Assembly (NCBI GenBank): GCA_902792865.1 | Contig: CADBBJ010000019.1 | Span: 2,012-66,011, forward strand | Origin: Candidatus Ruminimicrobiellum tauri | Lineage (GTDB): Bacteria; Elusimicrobiota; Endomicrobiia; Endomicrobiales; Endomicrobiaceae | Direction of reading: 5' to 3' | Length of the DNA stretch: 64,000 nucleotides | In this document: in pieces, positions 3 to 40,152 of the stretch | Layout: each line of letters opens with the position of its first letter | How positions within the stretch are numbered: the first letter of the stretch is position 1 | Translations under genes and position numbers: made by a program | The notes under the pieces: model-generated | The model's database searches: none | The model's input: the letters and a program-made list of their open reading frames with translations, nothing else | Told to the model about the DNA's origin: nothing

Positions 3-1247
3 AAATCTGATAGCAAAAAGGAACAATATTTTTTTAATTTGAATAACGAATTTAGAAAAATTAGAAAATACCGTTTAAACGGCAATTGGAAAGAGTTCAC
101 GAAAGGGGAAAAAAATATTATTAATCTTTTGAAAAATTTTTATGATAATTATGCAGACTATTTAACAAAACTTGGTTTTAGTGAACAACAACTGCAAAAT
201 GTAGAAAAAATAATAGAAATTGATATATCGCTTTATAATGAGGATAAATATAATAATAAAGGCAAATATGGAAATATTATAAAAAAAAAGGATACAACAG
301 AAATAAATGCTAAGATTTTATCGGGAAAAAAAGAAGATAGTATTTATCTTATGACAGGAATGACAATTAATAAATCAAATAAATTAGTGGAAGATAACAT
401 CTGGAAGTTTGTTGAAAAGAGAAAAAAAGGAGATAATTTTAATCCTATTAGTTGGTATTACGATTCAAAAAATAAGAGTATTAAAAGGGATTCAAATTTA
501 AGTGAATTTTTTATATATATCCAAAACAATGGAACCATTCTTCAAAAAATAGCGGATGAAATTATTCCGATTGATGATACCAATATGCTTCAAAGATTTA
601 TATTGGGAGCATTAATGCAACAATTTATTCAAAATGTCAAGAAAAATAATAAGAATATCAAAAAAGTAGAAGACCCGTCAAAAAACCTATATAATAACTT
701 GACAAAAGAAAATATTAAAAGTTATTTCGGTAAAAAAGCATTTAAAAAAGTTTTTATGCAAATAATTGAAGCTGATAAGACTTTATTAGATTCCTTTTTT
801 GATTTTACAAAAGAATGTGAATTAATACAAACGGACAATAACAAGTTCAGTTTAAAGTTTAAAGGTTCGGGATTAATACTTGATTTAGAAACTGACGAAA
901 TGAACAAGATAAAAAATATCTTTAAAATTGAGGATTATTTTACATTTAAAGATAATAAATTAAATTTTAATGAAATTAAAATAAAAGAAACAAAAGAAAC
1001 AGATTATATAAATGTTATCCGTTATAAAGATACTGAGGTATTATCATTAAAAGGGAAAAATATTAGTATTGAAGATAACGAAAAAATAAAAAATGTTTAT
1101 TTGGATTTAGATAAAGGATGTATGGGGTATGATGATAAAAATGTTATACAAAAATTTTATAAAGATAATTATGAAGAATTAGAAAACTTTAAAACAGAAA
1201 ATGATATAGATTTAAATGATTTCTTTATTCATGTTAAGAAAAGTTAA
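3..1247 (+). CDS. 5'-partial paralog of the giant-protein family (conserved module B plus linker module L); probably continues upstream of the window
   Basis: The ORF track starts at a TTG at 39, but the frame is open back to nt 3. The residues before 39 (..QYFFNLNNEFRKIRKY) align with INYFNKFKKFRKNHTNYF in the 1268-4771 protein. Module B (SIYLMTGMTINKSNKLV...GTILQKIADEIIPIDD...FGKKAFKKVFMQIIEADKTLLDSFFDF) also occurs in the two larger ORFs. The C-terminus (KIKNVYLDLD...ENDIDLNDFFIHV) matches 10396-10550 of the giant ORF. Confidence 0.6.
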   Translation, partial: KSDSKKEQYFFNLNNEFRKIRKYRLNGNWKEFTKGEKNIINLLKNFYDNYADYLTKLGFSEQQLQNVEKIIEIDISLYNEDKYNNKGKYGNIIKKKDTTEINAKILSGKKEDSIYLMTGMTINKSNKLVEDNIWKFVEKRKKGDNFNPISWYYDSKNKSIKRDSNLSEFFIYIQNNGTILQKIADEIIPIDDTNMLQRFILGALMQQFIQNVKKNNKNIKKVEDPSKNLYNNLTKENIKSYFGKKAFKKVFMQIIEADKTLLDSFFDFTKECELIQTDNNKFSLKFKGSGLILDLETDEMNKIKNIFKIEDYFTFKDNKLNFNEIKIKETKETDYINVIRYKDTEVLSLKGKNISIEDNEKIKNVYLDLDKGCMGYDDKNVIQKFYKDNYEELENFKTENDIDLNDFFIHVKKS

Positions 1248-1267
1248 AGAAATATTTCTTTTCTAAT

Positions 1268-4200
1268 TTGGTTTCAATTCTTGCTGAAAGAAATTTGTAT
1301 GGTTTAAAAAAATTTCTTGATAGTAATGTTGTACATGCAGACTCCGGAAAGAGTGAGTTTTACTTCTATAAAAATTATTTTTTTAAACTTGAAAAAAATT
1401 TTTCTAAATTTCGTTTTACGGCACATGAATATGATGTTTATAATAAAATAAAAGAGAATGCAAATTTAAAGAATAATATCAACAAATATTATGGTTATTT
1501 TGATAAAGAAATTAATGGTGTAAAAAATAGAATTATTGTTAGCAAAAATTTACAAGAAGGCAAATTTATAGATTTATATGATTTTTTTTACAAGAAAAAC
1601 AAAAAGTTGTCAAAGGAAAAATGTGCCGATATCATAAAAAAAATAATTGCCATACAATCTGTTTTAAAAAACGAAAAAGGATTGTATAATTTTGATTTAA
1701 AACTACGAAACATAATGATAGATGAAGATCTTAATATAAAACTTATAGATTATGAGGGTATAGCACCTAAAGATAGTACCGTTTTTATGATCTCAGCTGA
1801 ATTACTTTTTAGCGAGATTTTCTTGGTGAATGAAGAGCTAAAATCTGATCTTTTAGATTATATACAATTTGATTTTATAATAAAATTGTTGAGTATGAAT
1901 GCTGGTACAAATATGAAAGAAGATGCTCGTAATTTATTATTGAGTCAGGGACAAAAGTTAGAAAGTCAAATAAACTACTTTAATAAATTTAAAAAATTTC
2001 GTAAAAATCATACTAACTATTTTAAACAAAACTTAGGTTTGAATGAAGCCTGGTTTGACAAAATAGAAAATATAATAAATACCGGTATAGAGCTTTCACA
2101 AAAAAGAAAATTTAATAACATTGTTTTAGTGGATGACAAAGAAAATAAAGAACTAAATAGTAAACTTTTACGAGAAAAATCTAATAGTATTTATATTATG
2201 AAAGATATTTTTATTAATGAACAAAATAAACTTGTGGAACGGGCTAATTATAAGTTTATTGAAAAGAGAAAAGAAGGAGATTATTTTAGATCAACAAGTT
2301 GGTATTATAATAGTGGTAGCTTTGCACTTAAATATGAGAGTAGTTTAGCAAACTTTATGTCAGAAATGCAGAAAAAAGGAACCGTTCTTCAAAAAATAGT
2401 AGATGAAGTTATTCCGATTGATGAGTCTAGTATATTTCAAAAAATTATATTGGGAACATTAATAGTAAAATTTATTAACACCGAAATAACAAAAGAAGGT
2501 TCATCTGTAAAATTTGAATCGTTATACAGTATATTGATTAAAGAGTCTAATATTGAACAATATTTCGGTAAAAAAGCATTTAAACAAGTTTTTATGCAAA
2601 TAATTGAAGCTGATAAGACTTTATTAGATTCCTTTTTTGATTTCAAAGAAGAATGTGAATTAATACAATTGGACAATGACAAATTTAAGTTAAAGTTTAA
2701 AGGTTCAAACTTAGAGCTTGATTTAGAAAAAGCAGAGGCAGACAATCTAATAAAGAAATTTCATCTTACCGAAGCAGATATACAAAAAAAATATACCAAC
2801 CCTGAAAGTGAAAACCAAAAGCCAAAGATTAATTCTAAAAACCCGATTGAAACAATAGCATTTAAACAAATAGGGGGAAATTATGAAAACTTCTTTGCAA
2901 TACAAATACCTGTTATAAGAGGTAAAGATAAAAAAATTCTAACGGATAAGAAAGGTAACAATATAAAACTTAAGTTAAATGTTGTTTATACAAAAGATAG
3001 TGGTGTTAGTTATCAGTTTATAGGGCAAAGTGAACAGATAGTAGAAACCTTGAAAAAAGAAGGTAAATTAACAGAAGATTTAAGCGAACTGAAATCGTTA
3101 GCAGATCTTTTATTTATAGACAGATATTGTACGGATAATATTGTAAGAGCAAAAATAGAAGGCGGAACAATTTTAACACAAGAACAAAAAAAGGCACTAT
3201 CCGATTATGTAAAAAGAGATAAAGACAATGAGTATTCTTATTTTAATGATAAGTTGATGGAAAAGGGAAGATATACATTTGCGGAAATAGAAGAGCTCTT
3301 GGCAGACACACCGAGCAGAACAAATACTTATGTGGGAGTAAAAGATGTAGAATTAAAGGTTACAAAAAATTTAGTGGAAGAGAATAAGATAGAACAAGAG
3401 ATACAAAGACTTAAAAGAGCGGGAATACACAAAGTGGTATTGTTAAAAGATAATATTTCTGATGAAGCATTGTGTTCAACGGTAATAAAAATAAGAAAAT
3501 TAGGATTACAACCGATAATAGGAATAACGGGAAATATGTTATCCGAAGAAAAGTCAACAGTTTATGATTTCATAGAAATAAGTAGCCGATTAAAGTCATT
3601 AGCAGGCTTTAGATTTATGGTTGATATAAATGATAATGTAAAAAATTTATTACAAGGAAAAGCCGACGATAAAGAGAGTATATTAGAATTAATTAAGAAA
3701 AGCGGAAAAGAAATATCCTATAAACCAAGTAATTTTGACAACCAGCAGGAGATGGAAAAAGCAGATAAATTATTTGAAGGAAAAGTTATATTTGTGGTAG
3801 AAGGGAAACAAATTATCAAAGACGAAACCGGAAAAGGAATAGAGTTCAAAAATGAAGATGTTTCCAATATTATTTCAAAGTTAGCGGGAGAAGGAAGATT
3901 TAGCTTATATTTTGATATGGATAAAGAAGATAATTTAAAGATGGCAAAGGAACTGGTAGAGAAAATATTCGGGAAAGGAGCGGAAGCAACTAAAACGATG
4001 ATATCGTTGGGAACAACATTTACGGCAAATATGTTTGCAGAATTATTTAAAAAGGATGCACCGACAAAATGTTTCAGTAATGCTTATGAACTGGGATATG
4101 GAACGGTATTTGGGGAAGTTTCACCGGAGAAAGTGGCAGGAGCATTCAAGGAATTGTTAACCGGTAGTATGACATATAGTAAGTTTAAGGAGTATATGGA

Positions 4201-4771
4201 CAAAAATAAAAATGAAGCTTTTACGGAGAACTTTAAAAATTTTGCTATAGGAGAAATAGAAGCCGAAATAAAAAAAGACGATAAACTTAAAGATGATGAC
4301 AAAACAGCAATGTTAAGACAGTATGTGATGGGATTTTTGATATCGTATATTGAAGATAAATTTAATGATTTTTATGAAACAAAAGGAGATATAAGACAAA
4401 TAGATATAAATGTAAAAAAACAAATAATGTATAGAATAATATGTTTATTACTGTCAGGTATTAATCCTACAACAATAAAGGTAAAGCTAAAGGAAGCTTT
4501 AAAGAAAAATACAAATAATCAATCACTGAAAGAATCAGTTAATAATACTAAAAAGAGTGATTTATTCGGCAAGATTTCAACAATGACGGCAAAATCGGAT
4601 AGTGTATTTGAGAGTGAGATGATTTATGCTAATGCAGATGCGGTTCCTGTAGATGTATACGACGATATAAATATATTGCTTGAAGACAGTTTAGTACCGA
4701 TAGCAGATATAGGTGAAACTGAAGAAGTTGATATGTTACAAGTTGTAAGGAGTATAGCTAAAAAGGCATAG
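1268..4771 (+). CDS. 1,167-aa giant-family paralog: protein-kinase-like domain plus conserved modules B, C and D of unknown function
   Basis: Long ORF collinear with the C-terminal ~1,300 aa of the 6267-14315 protein. Kinase-like motifs are FFKLEK, HEYDVYNKI, FDLKLRNIMID (D-x-K-x-x-N) and KLIDYEG. The frame is open from 1238, and the homologous sequence KKYFFSNLVSIL begins before the listed TTG, so the real start is uncertain. Confidence 0.8.
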   Translation: MVSILAERNLYGLKKFLDSNVVHADSGKSEFYFYKNYFFKLEKNFSKFRFTAHEYDVYNKIKENANLKNNINKYYGYFDKEINGVKNRIIVSKNLQEGKFIDLYDFFYKKNKKLSKEKCADIIKKIIAIQSVLKNEKGLYNFDLKLRNIMIDEDLNIKLIDYEGIAPKDSTVFMISAELLFSEIFLVNEELKSDLLDYIQFDFIIKLLSMNAGTNMKEDARNLLLSQGQKLESQINYFNKFKKFRKNHTNYFKQNLGLNEAWFDKIENIINTGIELSQKRKFNNIVLVDDKENKELNSKLLREKSNSIYIMKDIFINEQNKLVERANYKFIEKRKEGDYFRSTSWYYNSGSFALKYESSLANFMSEMQKKGTVLQKIVDEVIPIDESSIFQKIILGTLIVKFINTEITKEGSSVKFESLYSILIKESNIEQYFGKKAFKQVFMQIIEADKTLLDSFFDFKEECELIQLDNDKFKLKFKGSNLELDLEKAEADNLIKKFHLTEADIQKKYTNPESENQKPKINSKNPIETIAFKQIGGNYENFFAIQIPVIRGKDKKILTDKKGNNIKLKLNVVYTKDSGVSYQFIGQSEQIVETLKKEGKLTEDLSELKSLADLLFIDRYCTDNIVRAKIEGGTILTQEQKKALSDYVKRDKDNEYSYFNDKLMEKGRYTFAEIEELLADTPSRTNTYVGVKDVELKVTKNLVEENKIEQEIQRLKRAGIHKVVLLKDNISDEALCSTVIKIRKLGLQPIIGITGNMLSEEKSTVYDFIEISSRLKSLAGFRFMVDINDNVKNLLQGKADDKESILELIKKSGKEISYKPSNFDNQQEMEKADKLFEGKVIFVVEGKQIIKDETGKGIEFKNEDVSNIISKLAGEGRFSLYFDMDKEDNLKMAKELVEKIFGKGAEATKTMISLGTTFTANMFAELFKKDAPTKCFSNAYELGYGTVFGEVSPEKVAGAFKELLTGSMTYSKFKEYMDKNKNEAFTENFKNFAIGEIEAEIKKDDKLKDDDKTAMLRQYVMGFLISYIEDKFNDFYETKGDIRQIDINVKKQIMYRIICLLLSGINPTTIKVKLKEALKKNTNNQSLKESVNNTKKSDLFGKISTMTAKSDSVFESEMIYANADAVPVDVYDDINILLEDSLVPIADIGETEEVDMLQVVRSIAKKA

Positions 4772-4808
4772 TTTACATAAACGAAGCAAGGAACAAAAGA
4801 AATATGGC

Positions 4809-4846
4809 GGAGTGGGTACAACCAAACCCCTCCCCATATTTTTTTG
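4809..4846 (+). terminator. candidate rho-independent terminator after the 1,167-aa gene
   Basis: ggagtggg (4809-4816) pairs with cccctcc (4827-4833), with one bulged T and loop tacaaccaaa. A run of seven T (4839-4845) follows. Confidence 0.45.
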
Positions 4847-5177
4847 TCGTTTGTCATTGCCTTTGCCGTTCGTCATTCCGTGAAAATACGGAGTATTTTC
4901 GTGGCAATCCATCCGTTTTTGCCGTTGCCGTTGCCGTCTTTCCGTGGCAACTTGTTGCCGTGGCAATCCATAGCAAAATAAATCCGTTTTTCCTCTTTGT
5001 CGTTAAAGAACCCGGGCTTTTTCTTTTGAAGTGCGGTTTAGAGACGGCTTATGAGTGAACAATTTTTTAAACAAAAAACTACAAGAGCAAGTTTTTTCCT
5101 TATAGTAGTGATAAATAGTCTAAAAAACAAATAATTTGCTGTTCTGTCTTTTGTTTTTATTGTTGTTTTTTTATTTT

Positions 5178-5213
5178 CCATAGACTGCCACACCCTAACG
5201 GGTTCGCAGTGAC
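5178..5213 (+). repeat. P element copy 1 (ccatagactgccacaccctaacgggttcgcagtgac)
   Basis: Identical 36-mer found five times in the window, all in the same orientation. Confidence 0.95.
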
Positions 5214-5424
5214 AGCATTTATGTTACATAATTTTTTGTCATTCCCGAAAGCAGTAATCGGGAATCTATAGAAAAAACAAAAAATCCTATTTGTCATTCC
5301 CGCGGAGCAGTTGGGCGGCAATCCATAAAAAAAATAAATCCGTTTTCCTCTTTTTCGTCATTGCGAAAAAACACGAAGTGTTTTTGTGGCAATCCAGTCG
5401 TTGCCTTTGTTGTTGTTTATTATT

Positions 5425-5460
5425 CCATAGACTGCCACACCCTAACGGGTTCGCAGTGAC
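5425..5460 (+). repeat. P element copy 2
   Basis: Identical 36-mer. Confidence 0.95.
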
Positions 5461-5570
5461 ATCACATAGGAATGTTTTTTATCCGTTTTGTCTTTGTTGT
5501 TGTCGTTGTCGTTTGCCTTTGCCGTTTACCACTATATATTTAAAATTGTTTTTTGTATAATAATAGTATT

Positions 5571-6239
5571 ATGGGCAAAGGGTGTTTTTCTATAATTTCT
5601 GCAGTTTCCATAAAGCACAAGATACTGTCTTGTGTGTTGGCTTTTTTTGTTCTGATAAGTTCAACGAACTTGTTGAATTTTGAAGAATATAAAAAAACCA
5701 TTATGAAATCCGTAGAAGTATCAACAGAGTTAGTAGTAAGTCAGCTTTTTAATATATCTGCACTTCCTGTAAGTGCAATTTCAAAAATGTTTTTAGGTAC
5801 CCCTAAAATTACCGTAAAAAAAGAATGTACCCCGATACAGTTATCAAAAGAAACAACAACCGTAGAACAACAGACCGACAAAGCAAACGAAACGGTAGCA
5901 CCCGCAAATGAAACCGCAAACAATAAAGGAACCGATGCAAAAGATAATAATGTTATAAAAGCAACAATAGGATATTCAATGGTAGTCGATATATCGGACA
6001 TGAGAAAAGTTATAAAAAGTGAAGGAATAAAAGATTTGTTTGTTGCAGACAAACTGTTGGAAATAAATTTTTCTTTATGTAAAAAAGTAATAAGTGTTAT
6101 GTTTATAATGATGTTATTATTAGCAATATTACTTGCAAGAAAGAATGTAGGCAACAATAATATTATAAATAACAATAAAATAAAATATAAAAGATTAACT
6201 CAGCTTATTTTATGTAAGTTGGGTTATTTTTGTGTATAA
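5571..6239 (+). CDS. hypothetical small membrane protein directly upstream of the giant gene
   Basis: ORF track 5553..6239; the first ATG is at 5571. It has an N-terminal hydrophobic segment (ILSCVLAFFVLISS) and a C-terminal one (VISVMFIMMLLLAILLA), with a T/N/A-rich low-complexity middle. I recognise no family. Confidence 0.45.
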   Translation: MGKGCFSIISAVSIKHKILSCVLAFFVLISSTNLLNFEEYKKTIMKSVEVSTELVVSQLFNISALPVSAISKMFLGTPKITVKKECTPIQLSKETTTVEQQTDKANETVAPANETANNKGTDAKDNNVIKATIGYSMVVDISDMRKVIKSEGIKDLFVADKLLEINFSLCKKVISVMFIMMLLLAILLARKNVGNNNIINNNKIKYKRLTQLILCKLGYFCV

Positions 6240-6266
6240 AAGCACAAAATCAAGGGGAATGAATGC

Positions 6267-9200
6267 ATGAATATGTGTAAAAACATATTTAACATGTTAG
6301 TGAAAAAAGAAACACTAAATCAATCATATTTAAAATTAAAAGATTGGCTGTTATCATTTAATTTGGTAAAGATAACAGCGGTAATAGTATTGAATTGTTT
6401 CTTGCTGACGGCAGTATACGGACAAGCGGTGGTAGGAGTATTGGAGAACCAAAGAGCAACGGAACAATTCAAACAAATATTTGAGGATTTTGATGTTCTG
6501 TACAATTACGGAAAAATATCATCAGCCAAATATAAGGGAAGTGATAAGGTAGTTATAAACATACAGGATTTGCATAACAATGCGGAAGTACAAAAGAATA
6601 TAAACAACATAATATCATTGTTTGACGAAAAGTACGGGGTAAATAACATATATTTGGTAGGAGCTTACGGACAGGTAAGTACAAAGTGGTTAACGGCACC
6701 CAAAGATAAAAAAATAAGAGAAAAAGTAATAGAAACATTATTGGAATCCGGGAAATTAACCGGAGCGGAATATTATTCTGCAGTGAAGAATAAAACGGAG
6801 ATAATAAAAGGGTTAGAAAAGAAAGAAGAATATTTTGACAACTTAAAAAGGTTTGAAAGTATAATAGAAAATTCGCCCGTAATAACAATGCATATAGAAG
6901 CAATAAAAGAAACGGTAAAGAAATTGCAGTCAAAATATTATAATAAGCAACAAAAAGAAATAGAAAAATTATCCCAAAAATATGAATTAGAGCAAATATC
7001 GGCAGACGAATATTTTGAAAAGATGGAAAAATATGCAAAAAATTATGCAATGAATATAGACAAATATAAAAATCTGTCCGGGTATATGGATTTAATGGAC
7101 AGAAAGAAAAATCTTGATTATGAAAAGATAAACAAAGAATTGCAGACTTTTGTAGCGACATTAAAAGAAAGAATACCGTACAATGTATATAAAGCATTGA
7201 CAGATGCGACAAAAAACTTTTTGGAGATAGACAAATTGTACGGCTATATAATAAGGTTATCCAAACAATACAATTTGGAGTTATCGGGTAATTTCAAAGA
7301 GTTAGAAAGATTTTTTGAATATATAGAGTTAAGCCAGACAATAAATCCGTTTGAATTAATGAAAGAAAAACAAAATTTTAAAGACGAACTAAACGACAAA
7401 TTTTCGGTAAACAAGGTAGAACAGGAAGTAATATTTTTAAGTAATTTTGTGGGATATTATGAAGATTATTTAACAGGGAAAATAACAGCCCCGAATTACG
7501 AATATTATAAATCCAACATAGAAAAATTTAAATATATATGGATAAAATACATAGATAACAGAGAAATAGTAGCATTAGAGAAGTACGAAAAGATATCGGA
7601 TGAATTCTATAAAATAAACATAGCGAGAAACAAGTATTTTATAGAAAATATGAAAGAAGTAATGGATGCAAAGAAACTGGGAGTGGAAGTAAAAGGAAAA
7701 GATGAAATACAAAAGAGCATGAACTCGTTAAAGAAATCCAAAGAGATATACATAACGGTAACGGGAGGCTTTCATACCCAAGAGATGTCTAAAATGTTAT
7801 CCAAAGCAGGGATAACAAACATAATAATAACCCCTAGTGTAACAACGGATACAAAAGAATCGGACGAGATACATTATAATTTAGCCAAAGAGCAGGCAAA
7901 AATAGCATTTCAGACATTGGCAACATTGCCACCATCACAGCAGGAAGTTCAAGAAAGAGTAAAAGAATTTTTGAGTGCTATACAAACAGCGGGATTACAA
8001 GATATAAAAGCAGAAGATTTGCAAGAAATCATTGATGAAGTTCTTGACCGAATAAATGTTGATCGTCGGAAAAATAATGAGGCTAATGTATCGGTAACCA
8101 TAAATTCCGTTACCGGTGCAGAAGTAACGGTAGGTGATAAAACTTATGAAGTTAAAGCTGATAACAACCAACAGAAAGTTAATAAAGAAAACAACTTATA
8201 CAAATCAAAAAGTGTATTAGGTTTAATGAAAGTGTCAATAGCAATGTCAATACTAACTTTGATGCTTATACCGATATCAGGTGTAACAGGAAGTTTTCCT
8301 ATAGTACCGATAATATTATTTGGTCTGTCATTTGGAAAAGACGGATTTGAATGGAAACAGTATTCTTTATTGAACGAAGGTGCACAAAAGATAAGTTCTG
8401 ATGCAGAAATAAAAAGTAACATAGCAGAATCTCAAAGTGCATTCTCTGACGATAACGATTCAAAAGAACTAAAAAACAGGATAAATAAAAAATTTGCGGA
8501 TTTAGGATTTGAAGAGAGCAATATAAAAAATATAGAGATAGGTGATTTTACCGAAAAAAATGAAATGAAAAAGGATGAATTTGCCAATGTTGATGTTCGT
8601 AAGCAAAGATTAAAAACAGGTTTTTTACATATCAATTACAGATTAATACAAAAAATATTTATGGACGGGACAAACTTTAAAAATGATATTTGGAACGATG
8701 TATATTTTTCAATGTTTATAGCCCATGAATTAAGACATAGAAATCATCCGAGATGGCATGAAGTTGCAGTAAGTTTTTTTGATATATTTTATTTTATAAC
8801 GGTATTTGTAAGAGAGTTAAAAAAAAGGATAAGAGAGTTAATAAAAAGAATGTTTGTTAAAAAAGAAGAAAAAGAAGTAGAAGAAATAATCGCAAAAGAA
8901 TTAAAGGAATGGCAGTCTTCACTAAAGAACTTAAAACAAAAATATAACTCAAAATCAATAAATGATAACGGAGAAATAAAAGACAATGACTTGAAAGTAG
9001 CAACGGAAAGAAAAACAGTCCGTTCCAATGCAATGCAAGCCGGCAGTTTACAAAATACATTAGCAGTTAGTAATGCTCAATCTGCAAACAAGACTAACAA
9101 CAATGAAAAAGAAGTAAAACCTGTAATAATTGAAACTAATCCTTTGACTGAAACAATAATAGATGAATTTGATAATAAAAAGATAGTAAGTTCCAAATAT

Positions 9201-12200
9201 GAACAGAACGAAAATGGGATGAGAAATATTATAATTTATTTTAAAGACGGTGATGTAGAGAAGAGTGTTAAACTTTTAACCAAAGACCAAAATCTAATAA
9301 AACCTGAAGATAATACGAATATATCGGTGGCTGATTGGATAATTAGTAAAACAGCATATTTAGAAACAAAAATTAATTTTAATTCCGACCGAACAGATAT
9401 AATAAATTATAAAAAAGAATTGACTTCACTTAACGGTGCAAAAATATCGGGTATTGAATATGATAAAAATAATAATAGAATTATAATTTATCATAGAAAA
9501 GAAAAGTCTCATATCAAAATGGCTTACTTCTCTCTTTTTAAAGCTCTTACATCCGAACAAAAATCAAATTTGGAAAGTCTTAATAACAGTGATAATATAA
9601 TCGGAAATAATTTGGTTGATTGGATACATAAAAATAAAGATATTTATGGAATAAGGATAGAAGAGAACGGTATACGAAGTTTAACGGAATTGGCAGAACT
9701 TGTCGGAGATGCAAAAATAAAAAATATTGAATGTTATAGAGAAGACAAAACCAAGAAAATTAAGATTGAGATTTCTTATGTTAAAGAACAAGACGGACTG
9801 CCACAAGTTGTTATTTTTTACGGTCCCACGGATAAAGAAGGCAAGGAATTTGAAAAATTGAAAAAATATAATGTAGATTTACCTAAAAAGCCTGATATAG
9901 GCAGACCGATAGTTTCTTGGATACTCGGTAACCGAAAATCTTTAAAAATAGATATAGAAAAGATAGATGAAATTCGGATAACAGGTAAAAATAAACTTGA
10001 TAGTTTTATTAATCTTAGCGGAAAGTCAAATATAGAAGGTATAGAATATTATCAGGATAATAATGAGAAAAAGATTATAGCTTATTACAAAGAAAAAAAT
10101 ACTGCAACCGGAAATAAACGGATAAAAGGTGTTGTTTTTTCTGTTTCCAAAGATCTTACGGCAGAACAAAAAGCAAAATTGTATACGGAAACAAAAAATA
10201 TAAATTCGTTAAGTGATTTGATAACAAATATCATGATAAATTATGGAATAAAATTAAAAAAACAATTGAAAATAAACCGACATGGACAAATTTTTACATT
10301 TAAAAACAATAAGGTAAACAAAACAAATTATGATATTTCTTATCAAAATATTAAGTTGTTATCAATAAAAGATAACAAAATTACTATTGAAAATCCCGAT
10401 AAAATAAAAAATGTTTATTTAAATTTAGAAACCGAAGATATGGCATATTATTATGATGATAGAATACAGGATTTTTATAACAAGAATTCAAAATCTTTAA
10501 AAAATTTTATAACAGAGAACGATATTGATACAACCGATTTTTTCATTAGAGTTGCATTAAATAAGGCGATTTTAGATTTTGTAAATGAGGATATAGAAAA
10601 TGTGATTGTATTATCTGACAAAAATAAAGGAAAACTAAAGGAATATTTCTTTTCTAATTTGATTTCTATACTTGATAAAGGAAATACAAATAATTTTATA
10701 AAGAATTTTAGTAAGATTGATTATAAACAACAAAAGTTAAGAAATCCGTTTTATACCTACAATAATTATTTTTTTAAATTCAGCAATAATATAAAAGAAT
10801 TCAGGCTTTTAAAAAATGAATATGATTTTTATAATAAAATAAAAGGAGATAAAGAATTAAATAAAAAAACAGGAAAAAATATTAATGAATATTATGGTTG
10901 TTTTGATAAAGAAATTAATAATAAAAAATATAAATTTGTTGTTAGTAAAAATTTAACAAAAGATAACAGATTTGAGAGTTTAGATAAATCTGTTAAGAAT
11001 AATAATTTTACAAAGAAACAATGTACTGAAATTATAAAACAAGTATTAAAAATACACTCTGATTTAGAAGAAAAGGGATTGTACAATTATGATTTAAACC
11101 CGCAAAGCATAATGATAGATAAAGATCTTAACATAAAACTTATAGATTGTGATGGTATTGTACCCAAAGACTGTACCGGTTTTGTATCTTCATATATATT
11201 ACCTTATGATTATTTCTTGGCGGATGAAAATCTTCGTTCCTATTGGTATGATTATGTAAAATTTACTTTTGTGGTAAATGTTTTTTTTGATATAAAAAAT
11301 CTTGATAAACAGATGGCAACAGACTTCAAAAGACTGCAATACATAATTGACTATATGGAAAAAAATAAAAATAAATTTGCAAGACGAAAAAACAGAAGAA
11401 CATTGGCTCGGTATGGTCGGTATCTTAGAATATTTAGTGAAATTTCCGATAAATATGCTAACTTTTTTGAACAATTTAAGCTTGATAAAACCCGTTTAGA
11501 TAAAATAAAAGATATAGTAAAAACAAGTGTAACTCTTTTTCTGCATCCGGATGAGAGTTATAACAAAATTTCTATATTGGAACTACAAGAAATAGACAGT
11601 AATCTTTTAATGGAAAAAGAAAAAGATTCTGTTTATGTAATCAAAAATATTGTTATTGATAAATCAAATAAATTAGTGAGAGTATATAACGATAAATTTA
11701 TTAAAAAAAGAGAAAAAGGAGATTGGGTTAAACCGGATAGTTGGTATTATAATTTAGATTCAAAAAAGATTGTATTCTATCCGATTTTATATAAATTTAC
11801 GGAATATGTACAGAAGTATGGAACCATTCTTCAAAAAATAGTAGACGAATCTATTCCGATTGATGATACTGATATATTTCAAAAATTAGTATTGGGAACA
11901 TTAATAAAAAATTTTATTGATGAAAATACGGATAGCAATATTAAAGATGACAACAAACAAAATGAATTTTTATACAAAAAATTGAAGACCGCCGGTAATA
12001 TTAAAAAATATTTCGGTAAAGATGCATTTAAAAAAGTTTTTATGCAAATAATAGAAGCAGATTCGGAATTATTAAAATCCTTTTTTAATTTCAACGAAGA
12101 ATGTAAGTTAATAAAAGACAAAAAGGATGATAAAAAATTTTATCTGAATTTTAGTTCAGGATTAAAACTTGAGTTAAGTAACAAAGATTTGAATAAAATA

Positions 12201-14315
12201 ACAGATAAATTTCCTAAAGTTAAAGTAGATGAAATTCCCAAAGAAAAAGAAAATATACCGCCATCTCCGCCGAAATCAGTAAAAACAGAGAAACAAATTA
12301 AAACAGATTCTCATAAAGTTGAAGATAAATACATGAAAGTATATCAAAAGATAAAATTCGTTAGTCCTATTGAAAATATTAAGTTTAGTCAGATAAGCGA
12401 AAATTATCAAAAACTGTTTGCAATACAAATACCTGTTGTAAGAGATAAATACGGTAAAATTCTTACGGATGATAAAAACAACAAGATAAAACTTAAATTA
12501 AATGTTGTTTATACAAAGGAAAACGGTATTAGCTATTATTTTACAGGGCAAAGTGAAGGAACGGTAAAACAATTAATAAGGAACGGTAAACTATCGGAAG
12601 ATTTAAAAGAACTGAAACCGTTAGTTGATCTTTTGTTTATAGACAGATATTCTGCGGATAAGAATTTAAGAGAAGAAATAGAAAACAAAAATCTTTTATG
12701 GAAAGAACAGATAAAAGCACTGTCTGATTATGCAAAAAAAGATGAAGATATGAATTATTATGAGTTTAAATGTAAGTTGATAGGACAGGGTTACACATTT
12801 ACCGAAATAGAACAAATATTGTCAGATATTCCCGGCAGAACAAATACTTATGTCGGATTAAAGGATGTAGAATTAAAACTCACAAATCAGTTATTGGATG
12901 AGAGTAAGATAATAAGAGAGATACAAAGACTTAAAAGAGCAGGAATACACAAAGTGGTATTGCTGAAAGATAAAGATGTTTCAAATAAAGAGTTGTATAT
13001 AATAATAGAAATAATAAGAAAATCAGGTTTACAGCCGATAATAGGATTGACAAGAGAAATGTTGTCCGTTAGTGCGGATGAAAAGTCAAAAGTCTATGAC
13101 TTTATAGAAGAAAGTATAAAAATTAAAGCATTATCAGGATTTAGATTTATGTTTGATATTGACGAAAAAGTGGGTAAACTTTTAAATTATAAAAAAGATA
13201 TTTATGAAATGATTAGCATATTGGATTTAATAATGAATATCGGGAAAGAAATATCTTATAAGCCAAGTAATTTTAATAATGAAAAAATAGATATTGCAGA
13301 TGAATTATTTAAAGGAAAAGTTATATATGTAGTAGCCGGAAAACAGTTTACAAGAAATAACGAAGAAGATTTGGTTATCAATAGAACTGAAGAAAATTCT
13401 CTTAAGAAATTAGCGGGAGAAGGAAGACTTAGTTTATATTTTGATATTGATAAAGATAATTTAAAGGTAGCGAAAGCACTGATAGAGAGAATATTTGGAA
13501 AAGGAACGGATGCAATCAAAACGATGATATCGTTGGGAACAACATTTACGGCAAATATGTTTGCAGGATTATTTAAAAAAGATTCTGCATCAAAGGGTTT
13601 TAGTAATGCTTATGAAATCGGATATGAACCGATATTTGGGGATATTTCCCCGGATATAGTTGCAGTAGTATTCAAGGATGTATTAACCGATAATATGAAC
13701 TTTAATGAGTTTTTAGAGTATGAACAAAGAGAGAAAGAACAAAAATCTAAAAAAACTATAGCTTTTACAAAAGAATTTGATAAACTTGTTATTGAAGATA
13801 TAAAAGAAGTAAGCAAATATAATATTTCAGAGAAAGAACAAACAGCAATGTTAAAGCAATATGTAATAGGATTTTTAATGTCATATATTGAAACTCATTT
13901 TGATGAGTTGTATGAAGTAAAACGATCGGATAAAATGATAGATATAAAACAAATGGATATAAATGTAAGGAATCAAATAATGTATAGGATATTACTTTTA
14001 TTACTGAAAGAGATGATTTTTAACAATATAAAACAATATGTAAGTATTAAAGATAGTCAAAAAGAAGGTTCAATGAAACAATCGGTTAATAATATCAAAA
14101 ATAACGAGTTATCCGTAAATATTTCAAAAATGTTAATGAAAACAAATATAAATATTAATAGTGTGCTTAAAAACAATATAGATACGATAGCTATATGTAA
14201 TGATATAAATGTGTTACTTGAATACAGTTTATTACCGGTAACTACAAACGAATTATCAAAAACAGGAAATTTAATAAAAGATATTAAAAATATAGTAAGA
14301 AAAGCATCTTATTAA
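6267..14315 (+). CDS. 2,682-aa giant multidomain membrane-anchored protein (possible ChaN/Tiki-like domain, TM pair, HExxH, ~105-aa repeats, degenerate kinase-like domain, modules B/C/D)
   Basis: Uninterrupted 8,049-nt ORF preceded by aagggga. It has an N-terminal hydrophobic anchor (ITAVIVLNCFLLTAVYG) and an HELRH motif at 8724-8738. The kinase-like motif is YDLNPQSIMID...KLIDCDG at 11088-11156. The C-terminal half is collinear with ORFs 3-1247 plus 1268-4771. Confidence 0.9.
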   Translation: MNMCKNIFNMLVKKETLNQSYLKLKDWLLSFNLVKITAVIVLNCFLLTAVYGQAVVGVLENQRATEQFKQIFEDFDVLYNYGKISSAKYKGSDKVVINIQDLHNNAEVQKNINNIISLFDEKYGVNNIYLVGAYGQVSTKWLTAPKDKKIREKVIETLLESGKLTGAEYYSAVKNKTEIIKGLEKKEEYFDNLKRFESIIENSPVITMHIEAIKETVKKLQSKYYNKQQKEIEKLSQKYELEQISADEYFEKMEKYAKNYAMNIDKYKNLSGYMDLMDRKKNLDYEKINKELQTFVATLKERIPYNVYKALTDATKNFLEIDKLYGYIIRLSKQYNLELSGNFKELERFFEYIELSQTINPFELMKEKQNFKDELNDKFSVNKVEQEVIFLSNFVGYYEDYLTGKITAPNYEYYKSNIEKFKYIWIKYIDNREIVALEKYEKISDEFYKINIARNKYFIENMKEVMDAKKLGVEVKGKDEIQKSMNSLKKSKEIYITVTGGFHTQEMSKMLSKAGITNIIITPSVTTDTKESDEIHYNLAKEQAKIAFQTLATLPPSQQEVQERVKEFLSAIQTAGLQDIKAEDLQEIIDEVLDRINVDRRKNNEANVSVTINSVTGAEVTVGDKTYEVKADNNQQKVNKENNLYKSKSVLGLMKVSIAMSILTLMLIPISGVTGSFPIVPIILFGLSFGKDGFEWKQYSLLNEGAQKISSDAEIKSNIAESQSAFSDDNDSKELKNRINKKFADLGFEESNIKNIEIGDFTEKNEMKKDEFANVDVRKQRLKTGFLHINYRLIQKIFMDGTNFKNDIWNDVYFSMFIAHELRHRNHPRWHEVAVSFFDIFYFITVFVRELKKRIRELIKRMFVKKEEKEVEEIIAKELKEWQSSLKNLKQKYNSKSINDNGEIKDNDLKVATERKTVRSNAMQAGSLQNTLAVSNAQSANKTNNNEKEVKPVIIETNPLTETIIDEFDNKKIVSSKYEQNENGMRNIIIYFKDGDVEKSVKLLTKDQNLIKPEDNTNISVADWIISKTAYLETKINFNSDRTDIINYKKELTSLNGAKISGIEYDKNNNRIIIYHRKEKSHIKMAYFSLFKALTSEQKSNLESLNNSDNIIGNNLVDWIHKNKDIYGIRIEENGIRSLTELAELVGDAKIKNIECYREDKTKKIKIEISYVKEQDGLPQVVIFYGPTDKEGKEFEKLKKYNVDLPKKPDIGRPIVSWILGNRKSLKIDIEKIDEIRITGKNKLDSFINLSGKSNIEGIEYYQDNNEKKIIAYYKEKNTATGNKRIKGVVFSVSKDLTAEQKAKLYTETKNINSLSDLITNIMINYGIKLKKQLKINRHGQIFTFKNNKVNKTNYDISYQNIKLLSIKDNKITIENPDKIKNVYLNLETEDMAYYYDDRIQDFYNKNSKSLKNFITENDIDTTDFFIRVALNKAILDFVNEDIENVIVLSDKNKGKLKEYFFSNLISILDKGNTNNFIKNFSKIDYKQQKLRNPFYTYNNYFFKFSNNIKEFRLLKNEYDFYNKIKGDKELNKKTGKNINEYYGCFDKEINNKKYKFVVSKNLTKDNRFESLDKSVKNNNFTKKQCTEIIKQVLKIHSDLEEKGLYNYDLNPQSIMIDKDLNIKLIDCDGIVPKDCTGFVSSYILPYDYFLADENLRSYWYDYVKFTFVVNVFFDIKNLDKQMATDFKRLQYIIDYMEKNKNKFARRKNRRTLARYGRYLRIFSEISDKYANFFEQFKLDKTRLDKIKDIVKTSVTLFLHPDESYNKISILELQEIDSNLLMEKEKDSVYVIKNIVIDKSNKLVRVYNDKFIKKREKGDWVKPDSWYYNLDSKKIVFYPILYKFTEYVQKYGTILQKIVDESIPIDDTDIFQKLVLGTLIKNFIDENTDSNIKDDNKQNEFLYKKLKTAGNIKKYFGKDAFKKVFMQIIEADSELLKSFFNFNEECKLIKDKKDDKKFYLNFSSGLKLELSNKDLNKITDKFPKVKVDEIPKEKENIPPSPPKSVKTEKQIKTDSHKVEDKYMKVYQKIKFVSPIENIKFSQISENYQKLFAIQIPVVRDKYGKILTDDKNNKIKLKLNVVYTKENGISYYFTGQSEGTVKQLIRNGKLSEDLKELKPLVDLLFIDRYSADKNLREEIENKNLLWKEQIKALSDYAKKDEDMNYYEFKCKLIGQGYTFTEIEQILSDIPGRTNTYVGLKDVELKLTNQLLDESKIIREIQRLKRAGIHKVVLLKDKDVSNKELYIIIEIIRKSGLQPIIGLTREMLSVSADEKSKVYDFIEESIKIKALSGFRFMFDIDEKVGKLLNYKKDIYEMISILDLIMNIGKEISYKPSNFNNEKIDIADELFKGKVIYVVAGKQFTRNNEEDLVINRTEENSLKKLAGEGRLSLYFDIDKDNLKVAKALIERIFGKGTDAIKTMISLGTTFTANMFAGLFKKDSASKGFSNAYEIGYEPIFGDISPDIVAVVFKDVLTDNMNFNEFLEYEQREKEQKSKKTIAFTKEFDKLVIEDIKEVSKYNISEKEQTAMLKQYVIGFLMSYIETHFDELYEVKRSDKMIDIKQMDINVRNQIMYRILLLLLKEMIFNNIKQYVSIKDSQKEGSMKQSVNNIKNNELSVNISKMLMKTNININSVLKNNIDTIAICNDINVLLEYSLLPVTTNELSKTGNLIKDIKNIVRKASY

Positions 14316-14830
14316 CAGATTAAAGTCTATCATATTCGCCATTCGCCATCTGCCGTTTGCCGTTGCCGTTGCCGTCTTTCCGTGGCAACTTGTTGCCGTG
14401 GCAATCCATCCGCTTTTTGTCATTGCGAAAAAACACGAAGTGTTTTTGTGGCAATCCAGCCGTTTTTGCCGTTGCCTTTTGCCTTTGCCGTTCGTCATTC
14501 CGTGAAAATACGGAGTATTTTCGTGGCAATCCATAAAAAAAATCCGTTTTCCACTTTTTTGTCATTGCGAGACCGAAGGTCGTGGCAATCCAGCCGTTTT
14601 TGTCGTTTAGTTGTTGTTTTTGTCGTTGCCTTTTGCCGTTGTCGTTTTTTATTTTCCATAGACTGCCACACCCTAACGGGTTCGCAGTGACGGCACATAG
14701 GATTGTTTTTCATCCGTTTTGTCTTTTGCCGTTGCCGTTCATTACCCTAATGTTCTTCCTAAAAGTCCAATATGTATTGAACCTCTACATCTTCTTGACA
14801 AAAAAAGTATAATGTTATACAATCATAAGG
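14316..14830 (+). repeat. mosaic intergenic repeat island B (4 hairpin units, 1 P element, GCCGTT spacers)
   Basis: Hairpin units lie at 14374-14408, 14419-14458, 14494-14533 and 14561-14592, and the P element at 14656-14691. Three hairpin units are identical in sequence to units of island A. Confidence 0.9.
14656..14691 (+). repeat. P element copy 3
   Basis: Identical 36-mer. Confidence 0.95.
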
Positions 14831-39171: not shown

Positions 39172-39329
39172 ATATTAAAATATATAAAAAATCAATTTTG
39201 CCGTTCGCCGTTGCCGTTTGTTGTTTCCTTTGCCGTCATTGAGAAAATACGGAGTATTTTTGTGGTAATCCGGTCGTTGCCTTTTCTGTTGTTGCCGTTT
39301 CGTCTTTGTAGTTGTTGTTTTTTATTTTT

Positions 39330-39365
39330 CCATAGACTGCCACACCCTAACGGGTTCGCAGTGAC
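39330..39365 (+). repeat. P element copy 4
   Basis: Identical 36-mer. Confidence 0.95.
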
Positions 39366-39562
39366 AGCACCCCTGATTGTTTTTCATCCGTTTTGTCTTT
39401 GTCTTTTGCCGTTGTCGTTCCGCCGTTCGTCGTCTTTCCGTGAAAAAATTTTGATTTTTTCGTGGCAATCCATAAAAAAATAAATCCGTTTTCCACTTTT
39501 TTGTCATTCCGTGACCGAAGGTCGTGGCAATCCAGTCGTTGCCTTTGTTGTTGTTTATTATT

Positions 39563-39598
39563 CCATAGACTGCCACACCCTAACGGGTTCGCAGTGAC
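39563..39598 (+). repeat. P element copy 5
   Basis: Identical 36-mer. Confidence 0.95.
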
Positions 39599-40152
39599 AG
39601 CATCCTGATTGTTTTTCATCCGTTTTGTCTTTGTTGTTGCCGTTGCCGTTATCGTTGCTGTCTTTCCGTGAAATTTCTGCGAATTTTCACGGAAAGACAT
39701 AAAAAATAAATCCGTTTTCCTATTTGTCGTTAGAGAACCCGGGCTTTTTCTTTTGAAGTGCGATTTAGAGACGGCTTATGAGTGAACAATTTTTTAAACA
39801 AAAAACTACAAGAACAAGCTTTTTCCGAAGGGCAATGTGTCTTTGTTTGAGCTTTTTTCGTTACAATATGTCGTTAGAAAAAAGCGAGTTGGCCTTTGGT
39901 TTAAAAAATTGGAACGAAAATAGAATGTACTTATAGTAGTGATAAATGGTCTAAAAAACAAATAATTCGCCGTTTTGTCTTTGCCGTTGCCGTTGTCTTT
40001 TGCCGTCTTTGCGAGGCAACTTGTTGCCGTGGCAATCCATAAAAAAATAAATCCGTTTTCCTGTTTGTCGTTAGAGAACCCGGGAAATTTTCTTTGAAGT
40101 GAGTTTTAGAGACAGTATATGAACGAAGTATTTTTTAGAGTACAAATATAAA

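Follow-up and report, generated by a model that had tools for sequence, protein, structure and literature searches.

Giant membrane-anchored proteins have been described from the Omnitrophota, both as 'Archaeovorin' and as related classes (bioRxiv 10.1101/2023.11.21.568195; 10.64898/2026.06.07.730766), and an enrichment in huge proteins has been reported for the Elusimicrobiota (PMC11573180). Unannotated giant proteins are known to abound in the two phyla, so far without a mechanistic link, and according to the Omnitrophota papers the N-terminal regions of the giants are devoid of identifiable domains except for C39 and S8 peptidases (10.1101/2023.11.21.568195; 10.64898/2026.06.07.730766). We analysed a stretch of 64,000 nucleotides (nt) of Candidatus Ruminimicrobiellum tauri (contig CADBBJ010000019.1; hereafter the window), which contains an open reading frame (ORF) of 2,682 amino acids (aa), the giant ORF, directly preceded by a small gene. 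The giant ORF is a genuine gene coding for a mosaic, predicted membrane-tethered protein of two evolutionary units, and the first of these is the head of a large, multi-copy protein family that is undescribed in the literature searched. Since giant membrane-anchored proteins of these phyla have already been reported, the kind of protein is known; what is new with respect to that literature is the putative TIKI-like head, the conserved small partner encoded upstream of it and the expansion of the family throughout the Elusimicrobiota. The conserved head and the small partner are absent from the descriptions given in the two Omnitrophota papers, and no description of the gene pair was found in the literature searched.

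The resemblance to the Omnitrophota giants concerns the general layout, in which an N-terminal signal peptide or transmembrane (TM) segment is followed by mostly unannotated sequence, the odd mixture of enzyme domains found in the head family (PPDK, PGM, SecA_DEAD, methyltransferase and HD) and the tandem or clustered arrangement of the genes. The giant ORF is however much smaller (2.7 against 10–147 thousand residues), has only two or three hydrophobic segments, and lacks SecA_DEAD, HEAT, dockerin and glycosyltransferase domains. It does not have the characteristics of an Archaeovorin-type protein (far more than 10,000 aa, many TM helices and a divergent SecA_DEAD domain). SecA_DEAD is present in the head-family member P0083.

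An initial annotation, made from the sequence of the window alone, had proposed a single 8-kb ORF, and this is borne out: an AAGGGG sequence resembling a Shine-Dalgarno site lies 9 nt 5' of its ATG, and a protein database entry (P0001) has the same length and is 99% identical. A chance origin for an ORF of 8 kb in DNA of about 29% G+C (about 30% for the window) is impossible, which supports a real gene. Positions 140–8049 of the gene are matched at 100% identity by an independently assembled contig from ENA (L002), the one that encodes P0001, so that the body of the ORF is independently reproduced. All the features listed in the initial annotation were found where it had placed them (Table 1), and its statement that the domain order is unlike that of any characterised family agrees with the Pfam, NCBIfam, PADLOC and PDB sequence searches, which returned no significant match to the giant ORF. 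The profile searches of the giant ORF, its upstream paralog and the small gene (Pfam for the latter) gave sub-threshold noise except for the kinase, and there was no Pfam match for either the giant ORF or the small partner protein.

The architecture is, on the other hand, not unique as had been implied, since the first ~600–850 aa form the head that is conserved throughout a large family of giants in the Elusimicrobiota and Omnitrophota, in keeping with the enrichment of membrane-anchored giants already reported for these phyla. A full-length search with the giant ORF returned 90 proteins, all of them giant (1,590–4,693 aa). Endomicrobia and other Elusimicrobiota account for nearly all of them, and Omnitrophota for a few (P0083, P0087, P0161 and others contain the head domain). 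According to BLAST mapping, the part shared with the 89 homologs corresponds to aa ~30–600 of the query only and is always N-terminal; similarity extends to aa ~850–880 in seven proteins. A scan of one genome per GTDB species confirmed at least 567 head loci. The best 80 of these are all from Elusimicrobiota, among them rumen Ruminimicrobiellum-like metagenome-assembled genomes (MAGs; at most 66% identity), termite Endomicrobiellum and Endomicrobium, Elusimicrobiaceae and Endomicrobiales. Several loci can occur in the same genome (at least six in one Endomicrobiales MAG and at least three in a complete chromosome of 1.84 Mb), and tandem pairs of head-family genes are found in contigs L002, L004 and L007. 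The C-terminal parts are unrelated between members and most are without any Pfam domain; in the others, PPDK_N with PEP-utilizers, Metallophos, HD, PGM/PMM, PGK, GGDEF, AAA+, SecA_DEAD, M48, ABC1, RamC_N, methyltransferase and TPR-S domains were identified. A profile search with the core of the head only (E ≤ 10) retrieved only short pieces of family members and nothing leading to annotated families.

The N-terminal signal-anchor that had been proposed corresponds to a hydrophobic helix at aa 33–51, preceded by a net-positive N-terminus, and nearly all of the 89 relatives carry the same helix after an N-terminus of net charge +2 to +7. The region of ~430 aa which follows is indeed bracketed by VVINIQDLHNNAEVQ (aa 94–108) and ITVTGGFHTQEM (aa 496–507). 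Both motifs belong to a single alpha/beta domain, one to each of its separated halves, and no other part of the giant ORF is widely conserved. An alignment of 62 heads (32 in the first set, A1, and 30 more in A6) contains as invariant elements Q-D-x-H, E-G, G-x-E-Y/F, R-(N/D)-x-x-F, G-G-x-H-(T/S) and a Pro. The D-x-H, the Glu 28 residues after its His and the GGxH are invariant or nearly so, both in these 62 sequences and in 88 of the 89 loci: the Glu is found at His+28 in 84 heads and, shifted by an insertion of two residues, as LEGA in four. The giant ORF is the only one of the 89 with a Val in its place, and the adjacent paralog in L002 retains the Glu. An AlphaFold2 model of the head built from the head alignment (mean predicted local distance difference test, pLDDT, 83; predicted template modelling score 0.77) has a beta/alpha core whose halves are separated by ~280 helical residues. 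In the numbering of the modelled segment, QDLH follows the strand 45–52, the Glu/Val position follows the strand 76–81 and GGFH follows the strand 444–451, while the Arg is on the helix 383–411, the one preceding the last two strands.

Enzymes of the TIKI superfamily have a catalytic set of two His and two Glu together with a basic residue, represented by His85 and Glu113 in Bcr135, and by Glu3900, His3902, Glu3930, His4030 and Arg4001 in RRSP, where the substitution E3930L abolishes activity (PMC6254334). Compared with this superfamily (Tiki1/2, TraB/PrgY, ChaN, EreA/B, Bcr135/136, MARTX RRSP, PMT and HopBA1), the head presents an acidic residue two positions before a His, a Glu 28 residues further on, an Arg and a second G-x-x-His, in the same order and with the same spacing; the distance of 28 residues between His and Glu is the one found in Bcr135 and RRSP. 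In the model these residues, apart from the Arg, are located at the C-terminal ends of the strands of the alpha/beta core, as expected for a TIKI enzyme. The two His and two acidic residues are thus present at the level of the family, the first acid being an Asp, and the invariant Arg454 corresponds to the conserved basic residue near the active site (Arg4001 in RRSP). In the giant ORF itself the set is incomplete, Val131 being at the position equivalent to RRSP E3930. The head also differs from the superfamily in that the Asp follows an invariant Gln and in that its helical insertion, or lid, is far larger (~280 aa). Enzymes of the Ere family have a helical insertion in the core as well, and membrane-tethered members of the superfamily include Tiki and PrgY/TraB. 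We know of no TIKI protein at the head of modular proteins of several thousand residues, except for the internal RRSP module of the MARTX toxins.

Against a TIKI assignment, there is no significant TIKI match by either sequence or structure. Three weak signals, each of them insignificant by itself, nevertheless agree with one another in its favour, these being the helical insertion of the Ere enzymes and the two matches that follow. Bcr135 (PDB ID: 3b55), an alpha/beta protein of the TIKI superfamily, is retrieved by Foldseek with the head model at rank 18 with E = 2.1, in a list of mostly helical and coiled-coil structures. The Pfam profile ChaN (Cofac_haem_bdg, Tiki clan) matches two of the 62 sequences, both distant members, at E = 0.02–0.06, co-linearly over the Arg to GGxH region. 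Searches of PDB sequence profiles with the full head or its core alone returned nothing, and an hhalign comparison of the core with E. coli YbaP (TraB) gave a probability of 0.2, with a single-sequence template and therefore low power. Furthermore, other Rossmann-like families match the head region equally well or better: STALD (SLOG) matches five of the 62 sequences, with a best E-value of 6e-4, and there are weak PFK and His_biosynth (HisA-type) matches. Taking the motif set and the model together, a TIKI-like hydrolase fold of the head is probable, but not proven. Two other assignments were discarded. The lid explains the dominance of coiled-coil, SMC and Rad50 proteins among the Foldseek matches in PDB and BFVD, and an SMC/Rad50 reading was rejected, as there are no Walker motifs and all of the Foldseek E-values are above 0.1. 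A metallophosphoesterase reading of DLH...GGFH was dropped since neither a GD nor a GNH(D/E) motif is found between the two.

The second conserved element is the small gene, whose stop codon lies 27 nt before the ATG of the giant ORF. Its product starts with a hydrophobic helix, is rich in K and N in the middle and has a C-terminal TM segment with L(P/A)R at its end; it also carries the conserved motif 'QxF..s.lP...ISKM'. Small ORFs directly upstream of a giant gene are found in the window and in contigs L002, L003, L004, L005 and L007, and in 55 of the 75 GTDB loci whose 5' end is complete an ORF of 126–241 aa on the same strand ends between about -50 and +190 nt from the giant start, most of them within +90 nt and most being hydrophobic at both ends. 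In some of the loci without a small ORF, a large upstream ORF is cut at the edge of the locus, and this may be another giant gene. When only six loci were compared the homology of the small ORFs was doubtful; it became clear with 62 sequences (the 55 GTDB loci, the window and the five contigs, and one ORF cut by a contig end). BLAST single-linkage clustering (E < 1e-3) places 49 of the 62 in one cluster, including the protein from the window, and an iterated hidden Markov model gathers 56 of them (E = 3.6e-29 for the window protein). While their TM composition inflates these scores, the motif in the soluble region is nevertheless conserved. Judging from these comparisons, the upstream small ORFs constitute one homologous family of two-TM-type proteins of ~160–220 aa, located directly upstream of the head gene in most loci and sharing the N-terminal helix, '..FF.....lP...ISKM', a K/N-rich spacer and a C-terminal TM segment ending in LPR(S/G). 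The gap of 27 nt, together with a promoter-like site at 5513–5546, upstream of the small gene, suggests that the two genes are co-transcribed, and their products would work together.

The 3' end of the partner gene overlaps, at 6196–6226, with a weak terminator-like hairpin (13 pairs, 3 of them G-C) that precedes a T-run and might attenuate read-through into the 8-kb gene. In one subgroup of the partner family (L003, 9469–9966; L004, 9519–9965), the tail 'EYPLKIPFW - TM - LFNVLPRS(V/I)S' is strictly conserved; it recalls a sorting signal, but it flanks the TM segment on both sides and is followed by 10–40 further residues. In L005 (3143–5570), a gene for an FtsH-like protein (AAA + Peptidase_M41) and an ORF of 256 aa for a lipoprotein-like protein are inserted between two head-family giants, just before the small partner gene. 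In L006 (1–5883; JGI Ga0120401_1000079), P0081, a head-family member of 4,162 aa with PGM_PMM domains, is preceded at a distance of 117 nt by a called gene of 15,380 aa, and no small partner gene lies in between.

Beyond the head, the similarity to other members is limited and the membrane topology is ambiguous. The 'pair of TM helices' of the initial annotation corresponds to a single hydrophobic block of 40 aa (aa 650–689), which would cross the membrane once or twice. The HELRH motif that had been noted beside a hydrophobic helix is at aa 820–824, in a region common to P0002, P0003, P0005, P0006, P0008, P0012, P0015 and P0030. The segment characteristic of this subfamily, 'LxINxxLl...FfD..G..i.N..LLE.FV.HExxH', is followed by H+xxPWLEE 19–22 residues further on and then by a hydrophobic helix, a pattern which appears gluzincin-like (M48-like). 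HExxH is kept in six of the nine sequences aligned over the region, giant ORF included. The giant ORF lacks ~17 aa of the spacer between HExxH and the second His, and that His is absent from three of the eight homologs. The Peptidase_M48 profile matches P0003 alone, and weakly (E = 0.006; 16.8 bits for a cut-off of 20.3).

The rest of the giant ORF is a cargo of modules with a very narrow distribution. Out of the ~3.5 tandem repeats initially described, three units are supported (z = 9.2 for R1–R3 and 7.7 for R2–R3 in shuffled Smith-Waterman comparisons, with 0 of 300 shuffles reaching the score) and the additional half unit is not significant; a self-BLAST of the giant ORF for repeats found nothing. 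The repeat unit is also present in P0092, P0094 and P0099. The degenerate kinase-like domain is found as announced. The corresponding region of the paralog 1268..4771 matches Pkinase with E = 7e-7 and 29.3 bits (cut-off 31.7), PDB kinases match at E = 0.004, the best ones being eukaryotic, and P0091–93 and P0095 have a precomputed PF00069 assignment. Compared to Ser/Thr kinases (PF00069) and to the RamC/LanKC type, the domain is alignable from helix C to the DFG-equivalent position and conserves a candidate beta3 Lys and alphaC Glu, but it has no Gly-rich loop and carries DYE or DCD instead of DFG. The relatives have DLKPEN or DLKLRN with DYEG, whereas the giant ORF has DLNPQS with DCDG, so that neither the kinase pattern D-x-K-x-x-N nor DFG is present, and the Lys and Asn of the catalytic loop are lost. 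On account of these substitutions, the domain of the giant ORF is probably a pseudokinase.

Modules B, C and D, for which no family had been recognised, were all found, and the upstream ORFs 39..1247 and 1268..4771 contain conserved counterparts of them. Module B returned no PDB sequence-profile match. A handful of proteins, one of them from Candidatus Ruminimicrobium bovinum, also contain the repeats, the linker, the kinase-like domain and module B, in an order that varies, and modules of the cassette also occur without the head. When 1.84 billion representatives were searched exhaustively with HMMER, 23 relatives of modules C and D came up; most are fragments and none has the head. Judging from these searches, modules B–D appear to have no known relatives beyond a narrow lineage. 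AlphaFold2 modelling of C and D from 25 sequences (pLDDT 79.6) gives eight beta/alpha units for module D (aa 2198–2436), and Foldseek matches it to many TIM barrels with a probability of 1.00, so a TIM-barrel fold is predicted. Its best PDB matches are O-GlcNAcases of glycoside hydrolase (GH) family 84 (E = 1e-4), followed by GH115, GH18, pyruvate kinase and others. Like the GH84 enzymes, module D consists of a barrel with a C-terminal helical bundle, but the identity is 7–12% only and the catalytic Asp-Asp after strand 4 is not conserved; the barrels of pyruvate kinase, dehydroquinase and a beta-eliminase superpose about as well. The conserved residues of module D (K-D after b1, R on b4, E on b5, G-R/D around b7 and K before b8) do not correspond to the catalytic acid pairs of GH84 or GH18. 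FDIDE, the stretch that could be compared with the DD of GH84 or the DxxDxDxE of GH18, is VDINDN in the paralog, and its columns are unconserved among the 25 relatives.

Table 1 Features of the giant ORF and its surroundings (positions in the window; aa numbering of the giant ORF)
Feature	Position	Strand	Remarks
Upstream cargo paralog (...B-linker / kinase-B-C-D)	39..4771	+	frameshift-split into ORFs 39..1247 and 1268..4771
Palindromic REP-like (repetitive extragenic palindrome) intergenic repeats	4841..5402, 14356-14713, 39298-39826	.	
Small partner gene	5571..6239	+	222 aa from ATG; listed ORF start TTG 5553
Giant ORF	6267..14315	+	2,682 aa, single reading frame, ATG start
N-terminal hydrophobic helix, Sec-type signal peptide or signal anchor (aa 33-51), then VYG/QAV	6363..6419	+	Kyte-Doolittle hydropathy 2.09
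Head domain (aa ~80-560), split alpha/beta core with TIKI/erythromycin-esterase-like motif set	6504..7946	+	common to all 89
QDLH motif (aa 100-103), right after beta-strand; candidate counterpart of TIKI E-x-H	6564..6575	+	
Val131 at the family's near-universal Glu position (His103+28)	6657..6659	+	
All-helical insertion ('lid'), ~280 aa, splitting the core (aa 186-466)	6822..7664	+	AlphaFold2 secondary structure
Invariant Arg454 (R-N/D-x-x-F motif)	7626..7628	+	
GGFH motif (aa 500-503), after beta-strand, second invariant His	7764..7775	+	
Hydrophobic block, 40 aa (aa 650-689), one long TM helix or helical hairpin	8214..8333	+	
Juxtamembrane HExxH region, then hydrophobic helix	8589..8831	+	HELRH aa 820-824 = nt 8724-8738
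Three tandem repeats, 96-101 aa each (aa 1019-1314)	9321..10208	+	
Conserved linker (aa 1343-1442; IKNVYLxLE...NDIDxxDFFIxVALNKAILDF)	10293..10592	+	in ORF 39..1247, P0092-95
Degenerate protein-kinase-like domain (aa ~1446-1715)	10602..11411	+	
Kinase-like catalytic loop YDLNPQSIMI	11088-11117	+	
Module B (aa 1728-1985)	11448..12221	+	7 sequences only, no recognised family
Module C (aa ~2040-2186), small beta-sheet domain + helical region	12384..12824	+	AlphaFold2 model, family conservation
Module D (aa ~2198-2436), predicted (beta/alpha)8 TIM barrel	12858..13574	+	AlphaFold2 pLDDT ~80-95
C-terminal helical bundle (aa 2437-2682), attached to barrel	13575..14312	+	

The giant ORF belongs to a tandem paralog array which is recombining or prone to mis-assembly. 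It shares 46% identity over ~1,200 aa with the ORFs of the upstream paralog, which has suffered a frameshifting deletion near nt 1227–1235. Contig L008 (3618–3688) is 100% identical to the window on both sides of this lesion and has a different deletion at the same spot: with respect to the reconstructed intact reading ...DFFIHVALNKAILDF..., 67 nt were lost in the window and 5 nt in L008. Two deletions at one place could be due to a hotspot of mutation, to heterogeneity among strains or to selection in favour of inactivation. Contig L002 contains, behind the giant gene, another small gene with a giant paralog, which make up a second cassette. When positions 5303–6476 of the window are compared with 9234–10210 and 18245–19428 of L002, the small gene of the window and the 210 nt at the start of its giant ORF are found to be identical to the second cassette. 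From its nt 140 on, the giant ORF has exactly the sequence of the first cassette. The switch point falls within a stretch of 71 nt that is identical in both L002 paralogs (codons ~47–70). The possibility of a chimeric assembly, which the initial annotation had raised, is therefore partly substantiated, in that the first 139 nt and the upstream gene match the other tandem paralog in the independent assembly, and the architecture is unaffected. The mosaic 5' end may result from a real recombination between tandem paralogs or from a switch made by the assembler; the frame and architecture would be unchanged either way. It explains why all of the 16 aa differences between the window protein and P0001 are at aa 3–37, in the signal/anchor region, where both versions retain a positively charged N-terminus and a hydrophobic helix.

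The reading we favour, to which we give an even chance, is that of a membrane-tethered mosaic protein of two units, with a TIKI-like head working with its small partner and a swappable cargo, in a family which would diversify through tandem duplication and recombination between paralogs. The first unit (aa 1 to ~850) would comprise the signal/anchor helix, a split hydrolase-like domain of TIKI/ChaN/erythromycin-esterase type with its lid, and the hydrophobic hairpin or TM helix, with an additional juxtamembrane HExxH (M48-like) motif in one subfamily. The second (aa ~950–2682) would be a lineage-specific cassette made of the three repeats, the kinase-like domain, modules B and C, and the TIM barrel with its bundle. 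Head and partner would insert the giant protein into the cytoplasmic membrane and hold it there, with the head on the outer face, where it could hydrolyse or bind a peptide or ester ligand by analogy with the membrane-tethered TIKI and TraB/PrgY proteins, and the interchangeable cargo would supply the output activity. Three catalytic signatures are degenerate in the giant ORF (Glu131 to Val, the truncated HExxH spacer, and the lost Lys and Asn of the kinase loop). This copy probably acts as a scaffold or binding paralog, and the modelled TIM barrel is plausibly its only active enzyme module. Two observations sit uneasily with the proposed topology: K and R are enriched before the first TM helix and also before the second hydrophobic block, making the positive-inside analysis contradictory, and about half of the head family has no second strong TM segment and nevertheless carries ATP-dependent domains, which is a poor fit if the head is to be external and the cargo cytoplasmic in every member.

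This ambiguity, with half of the family lacking a second strong TM segment, makes a serious rival of a wholly exported surface protein or secreted effector, in which the signal peptide would be cleaved and the head, kinase-like domain and barrel would be active extracellularly or within a host. The Sec-like N-terminus (positive n-region, h-region and a conserved V-x-G/Q-A site) would suit such a protein, as would the PPDK, PGM and SecA_DEAD repertoire shared with the Omnitrophota giants, most of which are predicted to have a signal peptide with TM segments or a signal peptide only, the 15,380-aa gene adjoining P0081 and the eukaryotic kinases heading the PDB matches of the kinase-like domain. 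The known TIKI-fold toxins RRSP, PMT and HopBA1 are effectors (PMC6254334), and a host-associated lifestyle, possibly with ciliates, has been proposed for the rumen Endomicrobiaceae (PMC11257099). Outside the cell, however, there is no obvious energy source for the ATP-dependent modules; neither a secretion system nor a delivery domain is found nearby, the genes downstream being tRNA, recO, infC and rplT; the 40-aa hydrophobic block follows the head in the giant ORF; and the catalytic residues of this copy are degenerate. We consider full export rather unlikely, and the 'surface or effector machine' suggested in the initial annotation is not supported as stated and stays a guess because of the ambiguous topology. 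A different objection concerns the function of the head, which could be a Rossmann-like, SLOG-type sensor binding a nucleotide or other ligand and split by the helical insertion, the family then consisting of sensors instead of hydrolases. The STALD matches, a single YAcAr match and the strand-GG-helix motif typical of nucleotide-binding loops point in this direction, as does the lack of significance of the TIKI match, but all of the STALD and YAcAr matches are under the curated thresholds, and a Gly-rich loop alone would not account for two invariant His, the Asp/Glu and the Arg, for a His-to-Glu spacing equal to that of Bcr135 and RRSP, or for the presence of the TIKI-superfamily chain 3b55 at Foldseek rank 18. 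A sensor of this type is therefore unlikely.

Polymorphic toxin systems (PMC3482391) resemble the head family in combining a constant N-terminus with variable C-termini, in having headless cassettes and in recombining between copies, and differ in that neither toxin nor immunity domains are known here and that the variability extends over thousands of residues. A diversity-generating conflict locus of that type, with a constant trafficking head, swappable cassettes and headless copies serving as recombination donors, would account for the hypervariable C-termini behind a constant head, the headless paralogous cassette directly upstream (39..4771), the shuffled module order of P0092–P0095, the paralog crossover within the 71-nt identical stretch, the tandem arrays of head-family genes, and the TPR-S and kinase-type domains of relatives. 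It is improbable all the same: a recognised toxin domain is absent from every C-terminus, the genes downstream include no candidate for immunity, profiles of toxins and of defence systems gave no match (PADLOC nothing beyond weak kinase similarity), the variable part is the bulk of the protein and not its tip, and the cassette copy is upstream instead of downstream. The least likely explanation by far is an assembly artefact or a functionless, decaying pseudogene. The fusion of the 5' end of one L002 paralog to the body of the other, the frameshift of the neighbouring paralog in two assemblies, the three degenerate catalytic motifs and the REP-like repeats flanking the genes would be in line with it. 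They are outweighed by 8,046 nt without a stop in DNA of 29% G+C, by the identity of the body in an independent assembly, by the two alternative 5' ends, which are both in frame and provide the same kind of signal helix, and by the intact non-catalytic conserved residues of the head and of modules B–D.

The favoured two-unit reading can be extended, if only tentatively and with some doubt, to the proposal that the partner and TIKI-like head represent an unrecognised system, spread throughout the Elusimicrobiota and into the Omnitrophota, for exporting, anchoring or processing hypervariable giants. One head with an enzyme-like invariant site and one partner common to hundreds of giant genes define a family in which both an active site and a protein pair can be tested. 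If the head or the partner directs membrane insertion, processing or export, this would explain how these bacteria handle proteins of several thousand residues and make 'dark' cargo accessible, orphan modules B–D included. The system would then be a new modular carrier, whose enzyme cassettes are swapped through recombination of tandem paralogs, and would account for how and why the Elusimicrobiota and Omnitrophota amass giant genes. The giant ORF itself is a real but catalytically degenerate paralog within a repeat-rich array.

The repeats of this array are palindromic, as exemplified by GTCATTCCCG...CGGGAATC and ATTCCGTGAAAATACGGAGT. Their clusters produce spurious Cys/Pro-rich ORFs and terminator-like hairpin scores, and they coincide with the points at which independent assemblies diverge. 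The region downstream of the giant ORF contains housekeeping genes, including tRNA, recO, infC, rplT, trkHA and pheST.

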